The notes beneath the pieces are model-generated. The model had not been told where the DNA came from and did not search any database. It saw only the letters and a list, made by a program, of their open reading frames with translations. Made by a program: the position numbers and the translations under genes. A stretch of 64,000 bases of DNA from a phage: NCBI GenBank assembly GCA_024572335.1, contig GCA_024572335.1_3052.1. One strand, 5' to 3'. Shown here in pieces: positions 35,573-63,522 of this stretch; the first letter of the stretch is position 1, and each line of letters opens with the position of its first letter.

Positions 35573-36043
35573 TTAATCATGTTTCCACACCCCATCGGTA
35601 TTTGACCAAAGTCGCTGATTATCTGATCCTCGCCACAGCTTTTTGGTCGGAAGATTTTTCTCATACTTCCCATCAATAATAACATCAACATATTTAAGCA
35701 TTTCTAGTTGTTTAATATCTTCAAACTTATATCCTGTCCACAACCAAATGCTTTTATTGGGATAAAGATTTTTAACTGTTTGAACGATGCAATGAATCAC
35801 GTCTCTGTTATCAGGATAAAGAGGGTCACCTCCGGTTATAGTTAATCCTTCTATATAATCATTATTCAAACATTCAATTAATTGTTCTAGTGTTTCACCA
35901 GTGAATGGAATACCATTTCTAGCATTCCATGTTGATTTATTATAACACCCTTCACATTTATGCAAACAACCTGTAACGAAAAGAACGGTCCTGCAGCCAG
36001 GACCATTAACAAAATCGCAAGGATAAAATCTATCATAATTCAT
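35573..36043 (-). CDS. nrdG: Anaerobic ribonucleotide reductase activating protein NrdG (radical SAM)
   Basis: 156 aa; CxxxCxxC cluster motif GCLHKCEGC. Confidence 0.85.
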   Translation of the reverse strand: MNYDRFYPCDFVNGPGCRTVLFVTGCLHKCEGCYNKSTWNARNGIPFTGETLEQLIECLNNDYIEGLTITGGDPLYPDNRDVIHCIVQTVKNLYPNKSIWLWTGYKFEDIKQLEMLKYVDVIIDGKYEKNLPTKKLWRGSDNQRLWSNTDGVWKHD

Positions 36044-37857
36044 TGGTGCTTAACCCTATGCATGATTTCTTTATTTTTGCCGAGATTAAATCCGCGTTCG
36101 TTCGGATTTCCAAGATAGCCGCATGTTCTTCTTATTGTGTTCATCTTTTTAGGATCAGTTTCTCCACAGATAGAACAAACAAATCCGTTTTCAGTAGGAG
36201 TCATTTCATGGGTGCTTCCGCATGTAAAACATTTATCTACTGGCATATTAACACCAAAATAATCTAAATGTTGTGCAGCATAATCCCATACAGCCTCAAG
36301 GCCTTTTAGGTTATTTTTCATATCAGGAAGTTCAACATAAGAAATGTGACCACCTGTCGCAATGAAATGATATGGCGCTTCACGAGAAATCTTTTCAAAC
36401 GGAGTAATATTTTCTTCTACTGAAACATGGAAACTGTTAGTGTACCATCCTTTATCGGTAACATCTTTTACACTTCCATATTTTTCTGTATCAAGTTTAC
36501 AGAAGCGATAACAAAGGTTTTCAGCAGGAGTCGAATACAAACTAAAAGCAAACCCAGTTCTTTCAGCCCACTGTTTAAGACGAGCATTCATTTTAGTTAA
36601 AATTTCTTGTCCAATGTCACGACCGACAAGAATATTCAATTCATGAATACCAATGTATCCTAAAGACACTGAACTTCTACCGTTTTTAAATAACTCAATT
36701 ATGTCGTCATCAGGTTTAAGACGAACCCCGAATGCACCTTCTTGGTAAAGAATAGGAGCAACAGTAGCTTTAACTCCTTTTAAGGAACTAATTCTACACA
36801 TCAAAGCTTCAAAACACAAATCCATACGTTCATTGAATAATTCAACAAATTTCTGTTCATTGAACTGTGTTCCAATATAAGAATCCAACGCGATGCGAGG
36901 AAGATTCAGTGTTACAACACCAAGATTATTACGTCCATCAAGAATTTCATTACCAGTCGAATCTTTCCATACGCTCAAGAAACTACGGCAACCCATTGGA
37001 GAAACAGGAATAGATGAACCGGTGATAGCTTTATTATTCTTAACTGAAATAATATCAGGATACATCCTTTTGCTTGCACACTCTAGAGCAAGCTGCTTAA
37101 TATCATAGTTCGGATCGTCTTTATAAAGATTAACGCCTTCTTCAACGAACATAACAAGTTTAGGAAAAATAGGAGTTATCCCATCACGACCAAGACCTTT
37201 AATACGATTTTTCAGAATTGCTTTCTGAATCATTCGTTCAGTCCAGTCAGTTCCCGTACCAAATGTAATTGTTACAAAGGGAGTCTGTCCGTTTGAACTA
37301 AAGAGAGTATTTACTTCATATTCATAAGCTTGGAATGCATCGTATACGTCTTTTTCTGTTTTAGATTGGGCATAATTCAGTGCATCGGCGATTTGCCATT
37401 TTTCTGCGTCCTCGATATGTTTTGCATAGGTGCGTTTAACATAAGGAGAAAGTACTTTATCTACATTCGCAAAAGTCGTTCCGCCGTATTGGTGAGAAGC
37501 AACCTGTGCGGTAATTTGTGCCATAATTGCAGTAGCAACGCCAATTGATTTAGGAGTTTCAATCTGTGCATTACCAAGCTTAAATCCGTTTTCAAGCATT
37601 CCTTTTAAATCTACTAAACAACAATTAGTAAATGGAAGAGCAGGGGAATAATCAATATCATGGAAATGAATAATTCCGCTTTCATGCGCTTTCATAATAA
37701 AAGACGGGACCATATTTTTGGCAATGTGTTTAGACACAATACCAGCCATAAGGTCCCGTTGAGTTGGAAAAACACGAGAATCTTTATTAGCATTCTCGTT
37801 TAAAAGGTCTTTATTAGTTTTATGAATCAATCCTTCAATTTCTTTTTCAATTGTCAT
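36040..37857 (-). CDS. nrdD: Anaerobic ribonucleotide reductase NrdD, uninterrupted
   Basis: 605 aa continuous ORF; C-terminal glycyl radical motif RRTCGYLG and Zn site CFTCGS...CSICG. Confidence 0.9.
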   Translation of the reverse strand: MTIEKEIEGLIHKTNKDLLNENANKDSRVFPTQRDLMAGIVSKHIAKNMVPSFIMKAHESGIIHFHDIDYSPALPFTNCCLVDLKGMLENGFKLGNAQIETPKSIGVATAIMAQITAQVASHQYGGTTFANVDKVLSPYVKRTYAKHIEDAEKWQIADALNYAQSKTEKDVYDAFQAYEYEVNTLFSSNGQTPFVTITFGTGTDWTERMIQKAILKNRIKGLGRDGITPIFPKLVMFVEEGVNLYKDDPNYDIKQLALECASKRMYPDIISVKNNKAITGSSIPVSPMGCRSFLSVWKDSTGNEILDGRNNLGVVTLNLPRIALDSYIGTQFNEQKFVELFNERMDLCFEALMCRISSLKGVKATVAPILYQEGAFGVRLKPDDDIIELFKNGRSSVSLGYIGIHELNILVGRDIGQEILTKMNARLKQWAERTGFAFSLYSTPAENLCYRFCKLDTEKYGSVKDVTDKGWYTNSFHVSVEENITPFEKISREAPYHFIATGGHISYVELPDMKNNLKGLEAVWDYAAQHLDYFGVNMPVDKCFTCGSTHEMTPTENGFVCSICGETDPKKMNTIRRTCGYLGNPNERGFNLGKNKEIMHRVKHQ

Positions 37858-52336: not shown

Positions 52337-52545
52337 AACCATGTCACCTTTAAGCAATATTCTTCTACGTGCTGTTTACGACCTTTCTTATCAATAAAGG
52401 TATATTCAACGAATGTTCCAATGTAGTCTTTATCTACATCATGTGGACTATTAATTGGACATTTAGTACGGCAAATGCGTTCCCATTGACGAATAATTAC
52501 TGCTTTGTTTTTAGGATCAAACGGATGCGGGTAATGTACTTTCAT
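52333..52545 (-). CDS. Hypothetical small protein
   Basis: 70 aa ATG ORF. Confidence 0.4.
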   Translation of the reverse strand: MKVHYPHPFDPKNKAVIIRQWERICRTKCPINSPHDVDKDYIGTFVEYTFIDKKGRKQHVEEYCLKVTWL

Positions 52546-52996
52546 AATCCACCACTATTAAATCAATATCAGGAGTAAACATGTCAATTAATTTAGAAAC
52601 CTTATCCCAATCGCCGCCAGCGATACCACAACCTATGCGTGGAATGTAAATTACTGGTTTGAACAAAAGGGTTTCTGCCTGTAGATTTAATTCTATCATG
52701 CAGTTTACTAAAGCACCATAATCAAGATTAGGACCTGGTTCGTATTGCGTATACAGGTTATAGCATATACCAAATCCCGTAGGACTATGTTTAAAAACAA
52801 TAGACATATCGCCTAATTTATCACGAGAACCGTACTCAGTAGTGGTTTTATCTATTTCTAAAATTTTGGGATAGGCTCTTGCTAATTGACCCGCTACACC
52901 TGAACCCATAGTATGAAAACAATTGCACCCGTGCGCAATAATATTACCTTGAAGAAATAGGGCGACAATATCGCCCTTGATATATTTTACAATCAT
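52517..52996 (-). CDS. Macro domain protein (ADP-ribose binding/hydrolase fold)
   Basis: 159 aa; GDIV...NIIAHGCNC...GSGVAG and IPRIGCGIAGG motifs typical of macro domains. Confidence 0.65.
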   Translation of the reverse strand: MIVKYIKGDIVALFLQGNIIAHGCNCFHTMGSGVAGQLARAYPKILEIDKTTTEYGSRDKLGDMSIVFKHSPTGFGICYNLYTQYEPGPNLDYGALVNCMIELNLQAETLLFKPVIYIPRIGCGIAGGDWDKVSKLIDMFTPDIDLIVVDYESTLPASV

Positions 52997-53879: not shown

Positions 53880-54341
53880 TCATTGAGTTTTAATTACTGC
53901 TTTAGAAGCCTTTCCTGGTAAACGACGACTGTTGATAATTGCCATCCTACATTGAAGTGACGGGTCTTTGAACTTCGCATTAGGTTTACAAACTGTAAAT
54001 CCAAGCCAAAGATTTCCATTTGTGATTTCTAAACGTCCAGGACGGTATTCAACCCCATCAATAAAATCCTCGTCAATGTCAGGACGCGGAGGCATACTCA
54101 GGAATTCATTAACTTCTAAAACATGGTCTTTTATTTTATGGAATAATTCAAAAACGTATGTCTCATCAATCTCCCGTTGAATTGCACGATCAAGAAGATG
54201 TTGAGAATATTTTAGATGAAACGATGAGACTCCTTCTGCTTTTGATGCTTCACGAATCTCATTGTTAATTTGACGAAACTCCGACTCAAAGTGACGACGA
54301 AGCTTATTTCGACGGATAAAAACTTCTGTATTGATAGTCAT
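53880..54341 (-). CDS. regB: Endoribonuclease RegB
   Basis: 153 aa as T4 RegB; position between tk-side ORFs and the lysozyme side; own early promoter and SD GGAG. Confidence 0.55.
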   Translation of the reverse strand: MTINTEVFIRRNKLRRHFESEFRQINNEIREASKAEGVSSFHLKYSQHLLDRAIQREIDETYVFELFHKIKDHVLEVNEFLSMPPRPDIDEDFIDGVEYRPGRLEITNGNLWLGFTVCKPNAKFKDPSLQCRMAIINSRRLPGKASKAVIKTQ

Positions 54342-54400: not shown

Positions 54401-54679
54401 TTATTCTTTAAATCTAATCAATTTATTCATAGACTTTGAAACTTCTGCACGAACCTCATGTAAGTTTTTAAGCTGTTCAAGACGCTGCTCATAGTAAGCA
54501 ATTTCATCTTCTTCGAGACAGTCCTGTGAATCTTCTTTAAGATAACGTGCATAGTCCTGAAAAGCTTTACGGACTACTTCCTGAAAGTCATCAAGACTTT
54601 GAATTTTCTTAGGAGCGGCAGATACACGACGAGGTGCAGTATAATACTCATAACCAAACCCTGCACTTAATTGAGCCAT
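54401..54679 (-). CDS. Hypothetical protein
   Basis: Track ORF 54401..54721 has GTG start; ATG at 54679. Confidence 0.4.
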
Positions 54680-54945
54680 TAGTATTTTTCCTCTGGTTGG
54701 AACACTGCACGACAAGCCCACATACTGGCTTCTTTGAGTTTCGTTTTAGCAATAGTTAACTGATCGAGGCTTTCAGCATAATTCTTCGCGAGTTCATAGT
54801 CTTCACAGCTATTAAATGCTTCCCAAAATTCATCGTATAAAGCATCAAAGATAAGTCCTAAACGAACTTCAGCGTCTTTGATAGCATTCACTTTACCGAT
54901 TTTCTCTTCAGTATGCGGCTTATAACTTTTAATGTCTTCAATCAT
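54679..54945 (-). CDS. Hypothetical protein
   Basis: Track ORF 54679..54981 has TTG start; ATG at 54945 follows SD GAGGAAG. Confidence 0.4.
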
Positions 54946-55159
54946 ATTTGACTTCCTCACCAGTACATAAATCATATTCAACTAAACGAATAGGTTCATG
55001 AATGCCATATCCTTGAACAGAAATTTCTGTCGTAGGATAAATTCCATCAATATCACCCATATTCCAGGCTTCGTTAAATTGCTGTTCGCCTGAATTACTA
55101 AACCACTCGGCGAAAGCATTTAGCACATCTTTAGAACCTTCAATAATTATCTTTGCCAT
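54938..55159 (-). CDS. Hypothetical small protein
   Basis: 73 aa ATG ORF. Confidence 0.4.
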   Translation of the reverse strand: MAKIIIEGSKDVLNAFAEWFSNSGEQQFNEAWNMGDIDGIYPTTEISVQGYGIHEPIRLVEYDLCTGEEVKYD

Positions 55160-55521
55160 TACAAACTCTCAGTAAAGGTACGAGCGATAACGTCGCGCTG
55201 CTGTTCCGGAGTCAGAGAGTTAAAGCGAACTGCATATCCGGATACACGGATGGTCAGCTGCGGATATTTTTCCGGATGCTTAACTGCATCTTCCAGAGTT
55301 TCGCGACGCAGAACGTTAACGTTCAGGTGTTGACCACCTTCAATTTTAACTGTAGGCTGTTGCTCAATTTCAATTTCACGGGCATGCAAACCGTAGAAAA
55401 TTTCTGGGTCTACAAAAGAGTCCTCTTTAAAGGTTTTGGAGACAATAATTCGTGCTTGAATACCATCTTCAAAATAAATAGTACCTTTATGTGTGCCTTC
55501 AAGAATTTGATATGCTTTCAT
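55159..55521 (-). CDS. Autonomous glycyl radical cofactor-like protein (GrcA/YfiD-like)
   Basis: 120 aa; glycyl radical signature [11 protein letters not shown] near C-terminus. Confidence 0.6.
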
Positions 55522-55528
55522 ATAAACC

Positions 55529-55909
55529 TCAATTAGAAAATAAATTTATCCAAGATTGTTCTTTAATTAAAAATGGCTCAGAATCATATGCCATTAAACT
55601 CTGTGTGATTAGTCCTTTAAAAGGCCCATCAATAAATTCCATGGTAAAATATGGAATTTTATTCATTAGCCGTGCATTAGGAGCAGTACATAAAACTCTG
55701 CATCCTTTGAATACGCCTTTTTGTAATTTGTATTGCTTAGGATAAAATTCGCTTAAAATGTTATTTTTTGCCAAAATTTCAAAATGATTCACCAATTTAT
55801 TTTTAATAGTTTTTGGCGAAAAATAAAGATATTCGAAAAGCTGAGTGTCTGTCATCATTGCATTCCAATCACAAAAAATTGAGGACGAGTAATACCACCA
55901 ATGCAACAT
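55529..55909 (-). CDS. Hypothetical protein
   Basis: 126 aa ATG ORF. Confidence 0.4.
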
Positions 55910-56394
55910 TTACTATTACAGCAGTAGTGTACAGTGTCAATATGGACACTATAAATCTTATCCATATCAGGAGATTTGACAGGCTCATCAATTATATACA
56001 AAATTCGCGAAAGCGATAAACCTCTGAACTTGCTTCCTTTATTACCAATAAAACTGCGCACAGAATCAGTAAATAAACGAAAACGTATATCATCATTAGA
56101 ATAACGCGAAAATTCCTTTTTAATGTTATTTGCAGAAATTTTAGCGTAAGCTGAAGTATTAGAAAGAACAATAACTGTTCCGCCATCATACAGCCAATTA
56201 GCAGCAAAGTTAGTCACAGCAATTGATTTACCAGATTGACGTCCACCGTCTAGTCGAAGTGTGCAATACTGCTTAAATAATTCTTCAAATGGCGGGATAT
56301 ATTCGTTTTTACAAATTTCTTCTACTCTAGCATCAGAATGGTGTGTAAAAGCATTCATCAGGGATAGATAAGGACCAGTTAAAAATGTTCTCAT
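55855..56394 (-). CDS. Small P-loop NTPase
   Basis: Walker A DGGRQSGKS, Walker B ILYIIDEP; likely start ATG 56394 (track start 56442). Confidence 0.5.
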   Translation of the reverse strand: MRTFLTGPYLSLMNAFTHHSDARVEEICKNEYIPPFEELFKQYCTLRLDGGRQSGKSIAVTNFAANWLYDGGTVIVLSNTSAYAKISANNIKKEFSRYSNDDIRFRLFTDSVRSFIGNKGSKFRGLSLSRILYIIDEPVKSPDMDKIYSVHIDTVHYCCNSKCCIGGITRPQFFVIGMQ

Positions 56395-56535
56395 TTTATT
56401 CTCTCTAGGTTTGGGCCATTCCGTGGCGCATGAATTGTCCATTTCTGTATTTACCCATTACCGCACTTGGGCTCGACCTTATTACAGGTTGGCGGGAATC
56501 CCTCATAGAATCATGAGGTCCAGTTTGTTCCCATA

Positions 56536-57009
56536 TTATTTGAACGATTTAACGTACTGAATAGAACCCTTACTATTCACAAAGGCAATTTTACCATTTT
56601 TATTATACATGGTAGCAGTACGCTGATAACCATAGGTTTGTTTACCAGATTGATAACCAACTAATGCAAAATTATCTTCACCCATTTTATTCTGTTTAGC
56701 GCGAATGCGTTCATGACCATGTGCCATAAGAACCTTAGCATCACCAGTTGCAATGGATCGACGAGTTTTTTCATCTTCAACTGCATTAACAAAGTCGTCA
56801 AATGAATCAAATTTAGCATGAGATTTATTATACAATTTTCCATCTACTGCATAATTATATCCCTGTACATCCATCTCAACTTCTGTACCATCATCCAATA
56901 CAGCAGTAATTTTTTGACCTTTTTTAAATTTCAAAAGATCAGTAAAAGATTCAGCAATAATTTGAGAATTAATAGCTGCTTCAGTGATAAATTCTTGATA
57001 TGTTTTCAT
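56536..57009 (-). CDS. Internal protein (IP) with capsid targeting sequence
   Basis: 157 aa; N-terminal MKTYQEFITEA matches the T4 IP capsid-targeting decapeptide; located just downstream of e as T4 ipIII/ipII. Confidence 0.6.
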   Translation of the reverse strand: MKTYQEFITEAAINSQIIAESFTDLLKFKKGQKITAVLDDGTEVEMDVQGYNYAVDGKLYNKSHAKFDSFDDFVNAVEDEKTRRSIATGDAKVLMAHGHERIRAKQNKMGEDNFALVGYQSGKQTYGYQRTATMYNKNGKIAFVNSKGSIQYVKSFK

Positions 57010-57060
57010 GGGTTTCCTTTAAATATTTTAATTAGTAATTTGTCTCTTCAAGCAACTGTG

Positions 57061-57093
57061 AATATACTATCACAATTCTAGGAGAAAGTAAAC
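57061..57093 (-). promoter_or_regulatory. Early promoter upstream of the IP gene
   Basis: GTTTAC, 17 nt, GATAGTATAT. Confidence 0.5.
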
Positions 57094-57097
57094 AACT

Positions 57098-62693: not shown

Positions 62694-62770
<77 letters not shown>

Positions 62771-62777
62771 TATTTTG

Positions 62778-62849
62778 CGGACGTGATAGGATTCGAACCT
62801 ATAACCAATCGCTTAACAGGCGATCGCTCTGCCATTGAGCTACACATCC
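62778..62849 (-). tRNA. tRNA-Asn (anticodon GUU)
   Basis: Acceptor GGATGTG/CACGTCC, D-stem GCTC/GAGC, anticodon stem ATCGC/GCGAT, loop CTGTTAA, T-loop TTCGAAT; CCA not encoded. Confidence 0.8.
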
Positions 62850-62853
62850 AAAT

Positions 62854-62940
62854 TGGTGGGGAGTGGTGGAGTCGAACCACCCGAGTCGCAATGACAATGA
62901 ATTTACAGTCCACACCGCTACCTCTACGGGATAACTCCCC
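62854..62940 (-). tRNA. tRNA-Tyr (anticodon GUA), long variable arm
   Basis: Acceptor GGGGAGT/ACTCCCC, anticodon loop CTGTAAA, variable arm TGTCATTGCGACTCG similar to E. coli tRNA-Tyr; CCA encoded. Confidence 0.75.
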
Positions 62941-62949
62941 AAATTAATT

Positions 62950-63024
62950 TGGTGGCCCTGGGTGGAATTGAACCACCATCTGGCGATTATGAGTCGCTTG
63001 CTTGAACCTTCCAGCTACAGGGCC
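62950..63024 (-). tRNA. tRNA-Ile (anticodon CAU, lysidine-type as in T4) or Met
   Basis: Acceptor GGCCCTG/CAGGGCC, anticodon loop CTCATAA, T-arm GGTGG-TTCAATT-CCACC; CCA encoded. Confidence 0.75.
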
Positions 63025-63025
63025 T

Positions 63026-63101
63026 TGGTGCTGATTAACGGAATCGAACCGCCGACCTTCTCATTACAAGTGAGTTGCTCTACCTACTGAGCTAAATCAG
63101 C
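63026..63101 (-). tRNA. tRNA-Thr (anticodon UGU)
   Basis: Acceptor GCTGATT, D-stem GCTC/GAGC, anticodon loop CTTGTAA, T-loop TTCGATT; CCA encoded. Confidence 0.85.
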
Positions 63102-63106
63102 AAAAC

Positions 63107-63196
63107 TGGCGGAGGCGATAGGATTTGAACCTATGAGTCGCCGGAGCGACTGCCGGTTTTCAAGACCGGTGCATTAAACCACTCTGCCACGCCTCC
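63107..63196 (-). tRNA. tRNA-Ser (anticodon UGA), long variable arm
   Basis: Acceptor GGAGGCG, anticodon stem CCGGT/ACCGG, loop CTTGAAA, long variable arm; CCA encoded. Confidence 0.85.
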
Positions 63197-63198
63197 AG

Positions 63199-63272
63199 TC
63201 TCCATACAAGGATTTGAACCTTGGACCTCCTGATCCCAAATCAGGCGCTCTACCAAACTGAGCTACACGGAG
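63199..63272 (-). tRNA. tRNA-Pro (anticodon UGG)
   Basis: Acceptor CTCCGTG, anticodon stem CCTGA/TCAGG, loop TTTGGGA, T-loop TTCAAAT; CCA not encoded. Confidence 0.85.
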
Positions 63273-63282
63273 TAAATTAAAT

Positions 63283-63356
<74 letters not shown>

Positions 63357-63361
63357 AAATT

Positions 63362-63448
63362 TGGTGCGAGAAGTGGGACTCGAACCCACAAGGAAATCAT
63401 TCCGCAGCATTTTAAGTGCTGTGCCTTTACCAATTTGACCATTCTCGC
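63362..63448 (-). tRNA. tRNA-Leu (anticodon UAA), long variable arm
   Basis: Acceptor GCGAGAA, anticodon stem CAGCA/TGCTG, loop CTTAAAA, long variable arm, T-loop TTCGAGT; CCA encoded. Confidence 0.85.
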
Positions 63449-63449
63449 G

Positions 63450-63522
63450 CTGGGAATAAAGGACTCGAACCTTTGCATCCTGGAATCAAAATCCAGTGCC
63501 TTACCAACTTGGCTAATTCCCA
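63450..63522 (-). tRNA. tRNA-Gln (anticodon UUG)
   Basis: Acceptor TGGGAAT/ATTCCCA, anticodon stem CTGGA/TCCAG, loop TTTTGAT; CCA not encoded; separated from tRNA-Leu by 1 nt. Confidence 0.85.

Follow-up and report, generated by a model that had tools for sequence, protein, structure and literature searches.

Location and organisation of the vs.6 locus

The DNA analysed here, referred to as the window, is a 64-kb stretch of phage sequence which carries on its minus strand an open reading frame of 120 codons, starting with ATG and followed by a TAA stop that is counted in its end coordinate (Table 1). The first-pass annotation had singled out this frame for a 120-amino-acid product with the motif RVSGYAV near its C-terminus, and the motif is indeed located there. 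In a residue-by-residue alignment the candidate radical glycine of the product is Gly95 (codon 55237-55239), which aligns with Gly102 of GrcA and Gly734 of PflB; none of the 120 residues is a cysteine.

Table 1 Features of the vs.6 locus and of the anaerobic ribonucleotide reductase genes of the window.
Feature	Position	Strand	Basis
vs.6 coding sequence, GrcA-like autonomous glycyl-radical protein, probable T4 Y06I ortholog	55159..55521	-	ORF list, Pfam, TIGR04365, PDB, phrog_1209, T4 identity
Glycyl-radical fingerprint RVSGYAV, residues 92-98	55228..55248	-	Translation; residue-by-residue alignment with GrcA and PflB
GAGG ribosome-binding site (Shine-Dalgarno), predicted	55527..55530	-	Read from sequence, 5 nt upstream of ATG
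5' half, phage-type N-terminal region, gene nt 1-178 (codons 1-59 and first base of codon 60), GC3 0.23	55344..55521	-	Identity, GC3, change point
Putative host-derived patch, gene nt 179-353, folded glycyl-radical domain, GC3 0.44	55169..55343	-	Near-identity to E. coli grcA DNA
Last three codons and stop, GAG AGT TTG TAA, phage-type, 3' patch edge	55159..55168	-	Codon comparison
nrdD, anaerobic class III ribonucleotide reductase, 605 aa, single uninterrupted ORF	36040..37857	-	Pfam NRDD 2.2e-171, Gly_radical 1.2e-25
nrdG, radical-SAM activase of NrdD	35573..36043	-	Pfam Fer4_12 4.6e-48, Radical_SAM 2.2e-07

The gene is tightly packed into a string of minus-strand genes, with its GAGG sequence overlapping the TGA stop (55529-55531) of the upstream gene vs.7, and with its TAA stop sharing bases with the ATG of the downstream gene (TAATG). 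A scan for sigma-70-like promoters returned 14 sites where 13.7 were expected, corresponding to chance level, and the MotA-box/-10 pattern was found nowhere on the vs.6 strand between positions 54,272 and 60,653, leaving vs.6 with no assigned promoter.

Alignment of the window with the annotation of phage AR1 (97% identity) revealed the same gene order in both, being vs.8-vs.7-vs.6-(unnamed ORF)-vs.4-vs.3-regB, and the AR1 counterpart is annotated as vs.6, “autonomous glycyl radical cofactor GrcA”. The order from vs.8 to regB is also encountered at the corresponding loci of CC31, Jiaodavirus and Mosigvirus phages, and the 3.4 kb around vs.6 are 97-99% identical to many Tequatrovirus (T4-like) genomes. 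The T4 protein, as retrieved by tblastn, matches that of the window in 119 of 120 residues (99.2% identity), the sole change being Gln54 here for Pro54 in T4. T4 shares the neighbouring genes as well as the host-identical 3' patch described below; the window phage differs from it in having Ip4 between vs.8 and e, where T4 carries denV, ipII and ipIII.

Assignment to the GrcA family

The concern that the fingerprint might be an isolated match was dispelled, since the surrounding sequence aligns with glycyl-radical domains: Pfam Gly_radical matches residues 60-101 (E 2.5e-18), and the NCBIfam GrcA model TIGR04365 (family IPR011140) matches the protein with an E-value of 1.2e-45. The structure of E. 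coli GrcA (PDB 6owr) is matched by residues 22-120 (E 9e-42), and residues 697-759 of PflB align with residues 58-120 (E 5e-26), such that the comparison with both proteins proposed at first pass bore out its view of the product as a stand-alone GrcA-like glycyl-radical protein. Residues 61-120 are 100% identical to residues 68-127 of E. coli GrcA, the radical glycine included, and 84% identical to PflB 700-759. The N-terminal half is very diverged, and its BLASTP alignment with the GrcA N-terminus comprises 13 identities among 39 residues (33%, E 3e-5). Because of this divergence, the whole-protein score against TIGR04365 (154.9 bits) remains under the curated equivalog cut-off of 170, and the product is best filed, on profile evidence, as a phage Vs.6-type homologue that would work like GrcA rather than as a strict GrcA equivalog. 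A single-sequence AlphaFold2 model had a mean pLDDT of 34.8 and was uninformative.

The phage protein and E. coli GrcA (YfiD, PDB 6OWR) are thus both stand-alone polypeptides of about 14 kDa with the same last 60 residues. They differ in the N-terminal half, which is 7 residues shorter in the phage, in the score relative to the equivalog cut-off, and in genomic setting, vs.6 residing in a phage gene cluster and host grcA beside ung. With the C-terminal radical domain of PflB (PDB 1H16/2PFL), the piece of PFL that would be replaced, the phage protein has an identical 13-residue loop in common; unlike PflB, it is an independent polypeptide without the 695-residue catalytic barrel.

Among phages, the profile phrog_1209 (positions 1-121) covers the protein over its full length, residues 1-120, with an E-value of 5.7e-63, and is still labelled “unknown function” in PHROGs. 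A tblastn search of 50,697 phage records detected homologues in 1,589, among them T4-like phages of many genera (Straboviridae), T5-like Demerecviridae, and Aeromonas, Vibrio and jumbo phages. An identical protein sequence, named “autonomous glycyl radical cofactor”, is present on 167 contigs of a public protein collection. The names of the homologues vary, being GrcA in many records and “hypothetical” or “pyruvate formate-lyase” in many others, and the annotation of these records and of phrog_1209 could be corrected.

The T4 RefSeq record also gives vs.6 the name GrcA. As T4 genomes each yield a single tblastn match to the protein, the T4 protein known biochemically as Y06I is in all likelihood the product of vs.6. 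The ORF is very probably the vs.6 gene of a Tequatrovirus, a T4-like phage, and its product the ortholog of T4 Y06I and the phage version of the spare-part protein GrcA/YfiD, which rescues pyruvate formate-lyase (PFL). Both the gene and its biochemical function, characterised since 2001, are already known, and as a gene call it is nothing new.

Probable rescue of pyruvate formate-lyase and possible other targets

The biochemistry of these proteins goes back to Wagner et al. 2001 (pmid 11444864) and is given here after the account of Andorfer et al. 2021 (PMC8683613). There, YfiD (GrcA) and T4 Y06I are described as spare-part proteins of approximately 14 kDa on which the PFL activating enzyme (PFL-AE) installs a glycyl radical in vitro, and which form a complex with PFL that has been cut by oxygen at Gly734, the radical and cleavage site of the enzyme, thereby bringing back its activity. 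The same account presents YfiD and Y06I as the only validated spare-part proteins, which would make vs.6 one of only two such genes with experimental validation, and the same activase and PFL-rescue activity are reported there for both. It further describes YfiD residues 61-127 as sharing the fold of PFL 693-759, and residues 1-60 as disordered and needed for binding of cleaved PFL and for efficient radical installation. The phage residues aligned to this fold are identical to those of host GrcA, and the AT-rich 5' half of vs.6 corresponds to YfiD residues 1-60.

Based on these data, traces of oxygen would cut active host PFL at its radical Gly734 and leave a dead enzyme, as has been published, upon which the phage protein would dock onto the cleaved PFL core through its N-terminal half, by analogy with YfiD. 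Its C-terminal 60 residues, identical to those of the host protein, would then stand in for the radical domain that was lost, and the host activase PflA would set a new radical on Gly95, both of which steps are described in vitro for T4 Y06I. PFL so rescued, again an in-vitro finding, would resume the supply of acetyl-CoA/ATP and formate. The phage probably keeps its own copy because T4 shuts off host gene expression and would thereby block expression of host grcA. Since the diverged half is the part which in YfiD serves recognition of cleaved PFL and efficient activation, the affinity, the timing and even the partner of the phage protein could differ from those of host GrcA. Support of host fermentation, which the first-pass annotation had suggested, coincides with this published function of T4 Y06I in restoring oxygen-cleaved PFL in vitro. 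In the literature searched, an in-vivo role of vs.6/Y06I or a benefit to the phage during infection was not found documented.

The mode of action may be the same and the main targets different, namely other host enzymes of the PFL family such as TdcE (2-ketobutyrate formate-lyase), or intact, non-radical PFL rather than the oxygen-cleaved form. A median of 3 DNA places per E. coli genome resemble the gene, which fits a cell with several PFL-type radical domains, and several phage records name the homologue 2-ketobutyrate formate-lyase, these names being automatic. Against this, PFL rescue is the one activity demonstrated for YfiD and Y06I (PMC8683613), and such a shift in targets is considered improbable.

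Relation to the phage anaerobic ribonucleotide reductase

The first-pass annotation had also noted that the phage encodes NrdD and NrdG, both of which are present (Table 1), and had proposed a contribution of the GrcA-like protein to anaerobic nucleotide synthesis. NrdD, like PFL, is cut by oxygen at its radical glycine, and Pfam Gly_radical matches the two phage proteins alike, such that the vs.6 product might be thought to serve NrdD of the same phage as a spare radical domain, with NrdG as the activase. Such a role has a precedent: Nolan et al. 2006 (PMC1524935) counted vs.6 as one of eleven ORFs conserved across the T4-like genomes of their comparison, and guessed a role in nucleotide metabolism from its Gly_radical match, the same guess as that made at first pass. 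Furthermore, homologues lie within anaerobic reductase clusters in Aeromonas phage Ah1, with the order nrdD-nrdG-vs.6-nrdC-nrdH, and in the Yersinia jumbo phage fHe-Yen9-04, with the order nrdD-orf-grcA-orf-orf-nrdG.

A direct part in NrdD repair nevertheless appears very improbable. The alignment with NrdD that had been suggested gave a negative outcome, as BLASTP of the vs.6 protein against the NrdD of the window retrieved no similarity (best E 3.9), and without a cysteine the protein could not supply the zinc-binding cysteines that NrdD carries ahead of its radical loop; a Zn-binding domain of NrdD is mentioned in PMC4493059. The fingerprint RVSGY is of the PFL type, the C-terminal 60 residues match PflB and are those of host GrcA, the activase described in the literature is not NrdG, and in this genome the gene is situated 17 kb from nrdDG. 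The two radical domains have the Pfam match, oxygen sensitivity and the phage itself in common, without pairwise similarity. On the strength of the lack of NrdD similarity, the lack of cysteines and the GrcA-identical C-terminus, the vs.6 protein is predicted to be a PFL-type and not an NrdD-type spare part, and the NrdD spare-part assignment was rejected.

What stood of the proposal is an indirect link. Formate is the reductant of class III ribonucleotide reductases including that of T4, for which a formate site has been proposed (PMC4493059). Since PFL makes formate, it is plausible that live PFL feeds both ATP production and the anaerobic dNTP synthesis of the phage, and the clustering of homologues with nrdD and nrdG is equally explained by PFL-made formate for NrdD; this placement leaves room for activation by NrdG. 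Formate from rescued PFL would accordingly also reduce phage NrdD, and under the low-oxygen conditions of the gut vs.6 probably aids dNTP synthesis and energy supply alike, which offers a concrete and testable reason for phages of gut bacteria to keep the gene.

A further reading is a decoy that sits on cleaved PFL or sequesters PflA and so shuts down host fermentation or radical chemistry. This would be in keeping with the strong divergence of the N-terminal half, by which YfiD governs its binding and its activation, as the outcome of binding could have changed. A decoy is extremely unlikely, given that the in-vitro work on T4 Y06I (PMC8683613) reports activity restored and not inhibited, and that the phage has preserved in its catalytic half the exact protein sequence of the functional host copy, which is the opposite of what a decoy needs.

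A host-identical patch inside vs.6

At the DNA level the two halves of the gene have different affinities. Comparison with E. coli grcA placed a maximum-likelihood change point at gene nt 178 (window position 55343; log-likelihood gain 68): identity amounts to 49.5% on the left, where indels relative to E. coli grcA also occur, and to 97.8% on the right. At the same point GC3 jumps from 0.23 to 0.44, the latter being the value of E. coli grcA, and a local GC peak of 0.45-0.48 is seen at the patch vs approximately 0.30 in the flanks. When the 64-kb window was searched by megablast against 5,426 complete E. coli genomes, positions 55155-55343 were the only part to match every chromosome, with no match in these genomes for window positions 1-40000.

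Within the 171-nt interior of the patch, a single difference from the K-12-type grcA allele was observed, which is synonymous and falls in the Gly95 codon (dS 0.023); the corresponding number of differences is 0 for AR1, 1 for T4 and 3 for a Mosigvirus. For the same segment, dS amounts to 1.24 between E. coli and Salmonella and to 1.3 between this phage and phage CC31. The 5' half is conserved among T4-like genera with a dN/dS of ~0.1-0.25, a pattern of selective constraint, and its residual similarity to GrcA points to an N-terminal half that is very diverged yet probably homologous.

The host-like sequence does not extend to the end of the gene. In bacteria the final codons are GAA AGC CTG TAA, and in Slopekvirus, Pseudotevenvirus and Mosigvirus phages they are GAG AGT CTA TAA, the type to which the window gene belongs (Table 1); GTT AAA ATT, the codons that directly precede the patch, are of phage type too. 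The host sequence appears, then, as an internal patch with both junctions inside the gene, which is the signature of gene conversion rather than of whole-gene capture. As judged from DNA identity, these comparisons show the radical-domain half to have been overwritten by recombination with host grcA, with E. coli the evident donor in this phage. The patch was probably made by the phage recombination machinery acting on host DNA where homology sufficed.

Direction and authenticity of the exchange

The two halves of E. coli grcA diverge evenly from those of related bacteria, being 89% and 92% identical to Citrobacter and 84% and 84% identical to Salmonella, as in vertical descent, and the transfer is for this reason taken to have proceeded from host to phage. 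By megablast, the patch is present in 633 phage records, where it is 95-99% identical to E. coli grcA, and in nearly all phage rows sampled the alignment starts at grcA nt 199-202. The best match of the window patch in any E. coli genome is 97.8%, with none higher. Constraint on the protein does not explain the identity of the DNA, since the almost unchanged 60 residues of other T4-like genera are encoded with 27-40 nucleotide differences in 171 nt. Tracking of the host at the protein level was rejected as evidence, since the C-terminal 60 amino acids are identical in 13 of 81 bacterial species; the DNA level alone is informative.

An origin of the patch other than natural host-to-phage conversion is barely credible, whether through contamination in the laboratory, a misassembly, codon usage that converged, or movement of the sequence from a phage into E. 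coli. Such readings could appeal to E. coli being the usual growth host of T4-like phages and to the very strong constraint on the C-terminal protein sequence, attested by its identity across those 13 species. Against them, the same 5' boundary recurs in the 633 independently sequenced records, substitutions specific to phages lie inside the patch, no E. coli genome exceeds 97.8% identity to it, the even divergence of both grcA halves points away from a phage origin, the 27-40 differences in other genera demonstrate that selection on protein or codons does not force DNA identity, and Klebsiella phages have a Klebsiella-type patch instead.

A Klebsiella-type patch and probable recurrence of the conversion

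Jiaodavirus phages, which infect Klebsiella, exhibit the same architecture, with a GC3 of 0.24 in the 5' half and 0.60 in the 3' half. The patch in these phages reaches only 86-89% identity with E. coli grcA, and its best match among 81 bacterial species, a set in which K. pneumoniae was not included, is 88-91%. A metagenome scan for a Klebsiella donor with an exact 29-mer found nothing. A second scan, performed with a degenerate pattern for the bacterial junction, returned 78 grcA alleles, the commonest of which encodes a protein identical to Klebsiella GrcA (GRCA_KLEP7). In the 171-nt interior, phage PSE-D1 differs from this Klebsiella allele at 5 positions and from E. coli at 19, and phage K65_evo9 at 8 and 24 positions, respectively. 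At the 20 sites which separate the E. coli and Klebsiella grcA genes, E. coli phages are E. coli-type at 19-20 and Klebsiella-type at 0, and Jiaodavirus phages are Klebsiella-type at 16-17 and E. coli-type at 1-2. In the reciprocal megablast, 106 phage records were 95-99% identical to the Klebsiella allele, vs 86-88% in the rows sampled for E. coli phages. The homologues of Slopekvirus, Karamvirus, Pseudotevenvirus, T5-like, Aeromonas, Vibrio and jumbo phages had no near-identical donor among the alleles sampled.

Between Tequatrovirus and Mosigvirus, dS equals 0.48 in the 5' half and 0.10 in the patch (Fisher p 0.014). Because it is lower in the patch, the patch would be younger than the split of these two genera, or has been exchanged or renewed since. 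The allele comparisons indicate at least two independent gene conversions of the same segment from host to phage. The wider proposition, on which we are evenly divided, is that the radical-domain half evolves in concert with the grcA gene of the current host, the same segment of ~175 nt having been overwritten at least twice (from E. coli into Tequatrovirus and Mosigvirus, and from Klebsiella into Jiaodavirus) with the N-terminal half and the last three codons untouched. Repeated conversion might be adaptive, in that a perfect fit to the PFL core and the activase of the host is kept, or it might be merely self-reinforcing. If it is recurrent and ongoing, it would provide a clear example, from beyond the cyanophages, of how a strictly lytic phage that degrades host DNA repeatedly copies host chromosome into a gene of its own, and the patch would record the recent host of a phage lineage.

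A host-identical grcA patch in vs.6 was not described in the literature searched, coverage of which was incomplete and did not include the T4 genome review. What may be new is the host-specific conversion patch alone, as a modest evolutionary observation and not a new kind of system. It offers a compact natural record of recombination between a lytic phage and the host chromosome which could be used to measure this process, and from which recent hosts of T4-like phages could be inferred.

Intragenic host patches of this sort have a parallel in cyanophages, whose photosystem genes psbA and psbD are reported to be host-phage mosaics (Zeidner 2005, Sullivan 2006). They share with vs.6 that a metabolic gene of a lytic T4-like phage contains patches of host sequence marked by jumps in GC content and identity. 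The patch in vs.6 differs from them in that it covers exactly the functional domain, in being nearly identical to a present-day host allele, and in the use of the same two patch boundaries in two phage genera with two donor species.

A host-derived patch in vs.6

Comparison of the phage gene with bacterial sequences identifies the 3' half of vs.6, the T4-like gene for a GrcA-like glycyl-radical protein, as a patch of host grcA DNA. Over the 171 nt compared with E. coli grcA, the patch contains a single difference, which is synonymous, and it is flanked on either side by phage-type sequence. It matches every E. coli chromosome and is the sole segment of the 64-kb window to do so. At the same position, Klebsiella phages of the genus Jiaodavirus (L006 and L094) carry a Klebsiella-type patch, as judged against Klebsiella grcA (L096).

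Coordinates of the features discussed (window positions unless another locus is named).
Feature	Position	Strand	Remarks
Host grcA DNA patch	55169-55343	-	3' half of vs.6
vs.7	55529-55909	-	
vs.8	55855-56442	-	195 aa
Ip4-type internal protein (DUF7412)	56536-57009		within vs.8-e interval, 56443-57097
vs.4 (AR1 name)	54679-54981	-	100 aa; two genes downstream of vs.6
ORF at AR1 tk.4 position	52517-52996	-	Macro domain, E 1.3e-07
nrdD	36040-37857	-	single uninterrupted ORF, 605 aa
tRNA cluster	62694-63522	-	10 genes: Arg, Asn, Tyr, Met/CAU, Thr, Ser, Pro, Gly, Leu, Gln
grcA-like gene, Aeromonas phage Ah1	L091 3501-3884		after nrdG, 4-nt overlap
grcA-like gene, Yersinia phage fHe-Yen9-04	L010 1495-1857		between nrdD and nrdG

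Association with anaerobic ribonucleotide reductase genes

In the Ah1 and fHe-Yen9-04 lineages, the anaerobic ribonucleotide reductase cluster contains a grcA-like gene; in T4-like coliphages, 17 kb separates this gene from nrdD/nrdG. Its location within nrdD-nrdG clusters is consistent with a route in which pyruvate formate-lyase (PFL) would yield formate to supply NrdD. The nrdD gene of T4 (sunY) contains a group I intron, and since the reading frame of the present phage is uninterrupted, its nrdD appears to be without an intron at that site.

Annotation of the vs.6 family

The family to which vs.6 belongs (phrog_1209) is labelled 'unknown function' in PHROGs v4, and many GenBank phage records name its members 'hypothetical', 'pyruvate formate-lyase' or '2-ketobutyrate formate-lyase'. 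As the biochemical characterisation of the T4 protein dates from 2001 (Wagner et al. 2001, as summarised in PMC8683613), these labels represent an annotation gap.

Genes neighbouring vs.6

Upstream, vs.8 and vs.7 overlap by 55 nt; vs.8 encodes a Walker-A-like motif (GGRQSGKS) and weakly matches phrog_2, the ATPase part of large terminases (E 9e-06), both genes being otherwise listed as unknown in PHROGs and Pfam. In the close relatives NBEco003 and Shigella phage A2, the match to the vs.8-e interval is split in two pieces and a denV (endonuclease V) gene is annotated under it, which suggests a denV insertion in these relatives that is absent from the corresponding stretch here.

Downstream, the ORF at the vs.4 position matches the Pfam Acb2/Tad1 hairpin domain (E 3e-19), whose members are phage sponges that soak up the cyclic nucleotides used in immune signalling. 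The Macro domain, an ADP-ribose-binding/phosphatase module, is found in an ORF whose equivalence to AR1 tk.4 was assigned on gene order only. Elsewhere in the window, within the tRNA cluster, the tRNA-Tyr region (about 62851-62943) shows a ~88% match to tRNA-Tyr features of some E. coli plasmid records.
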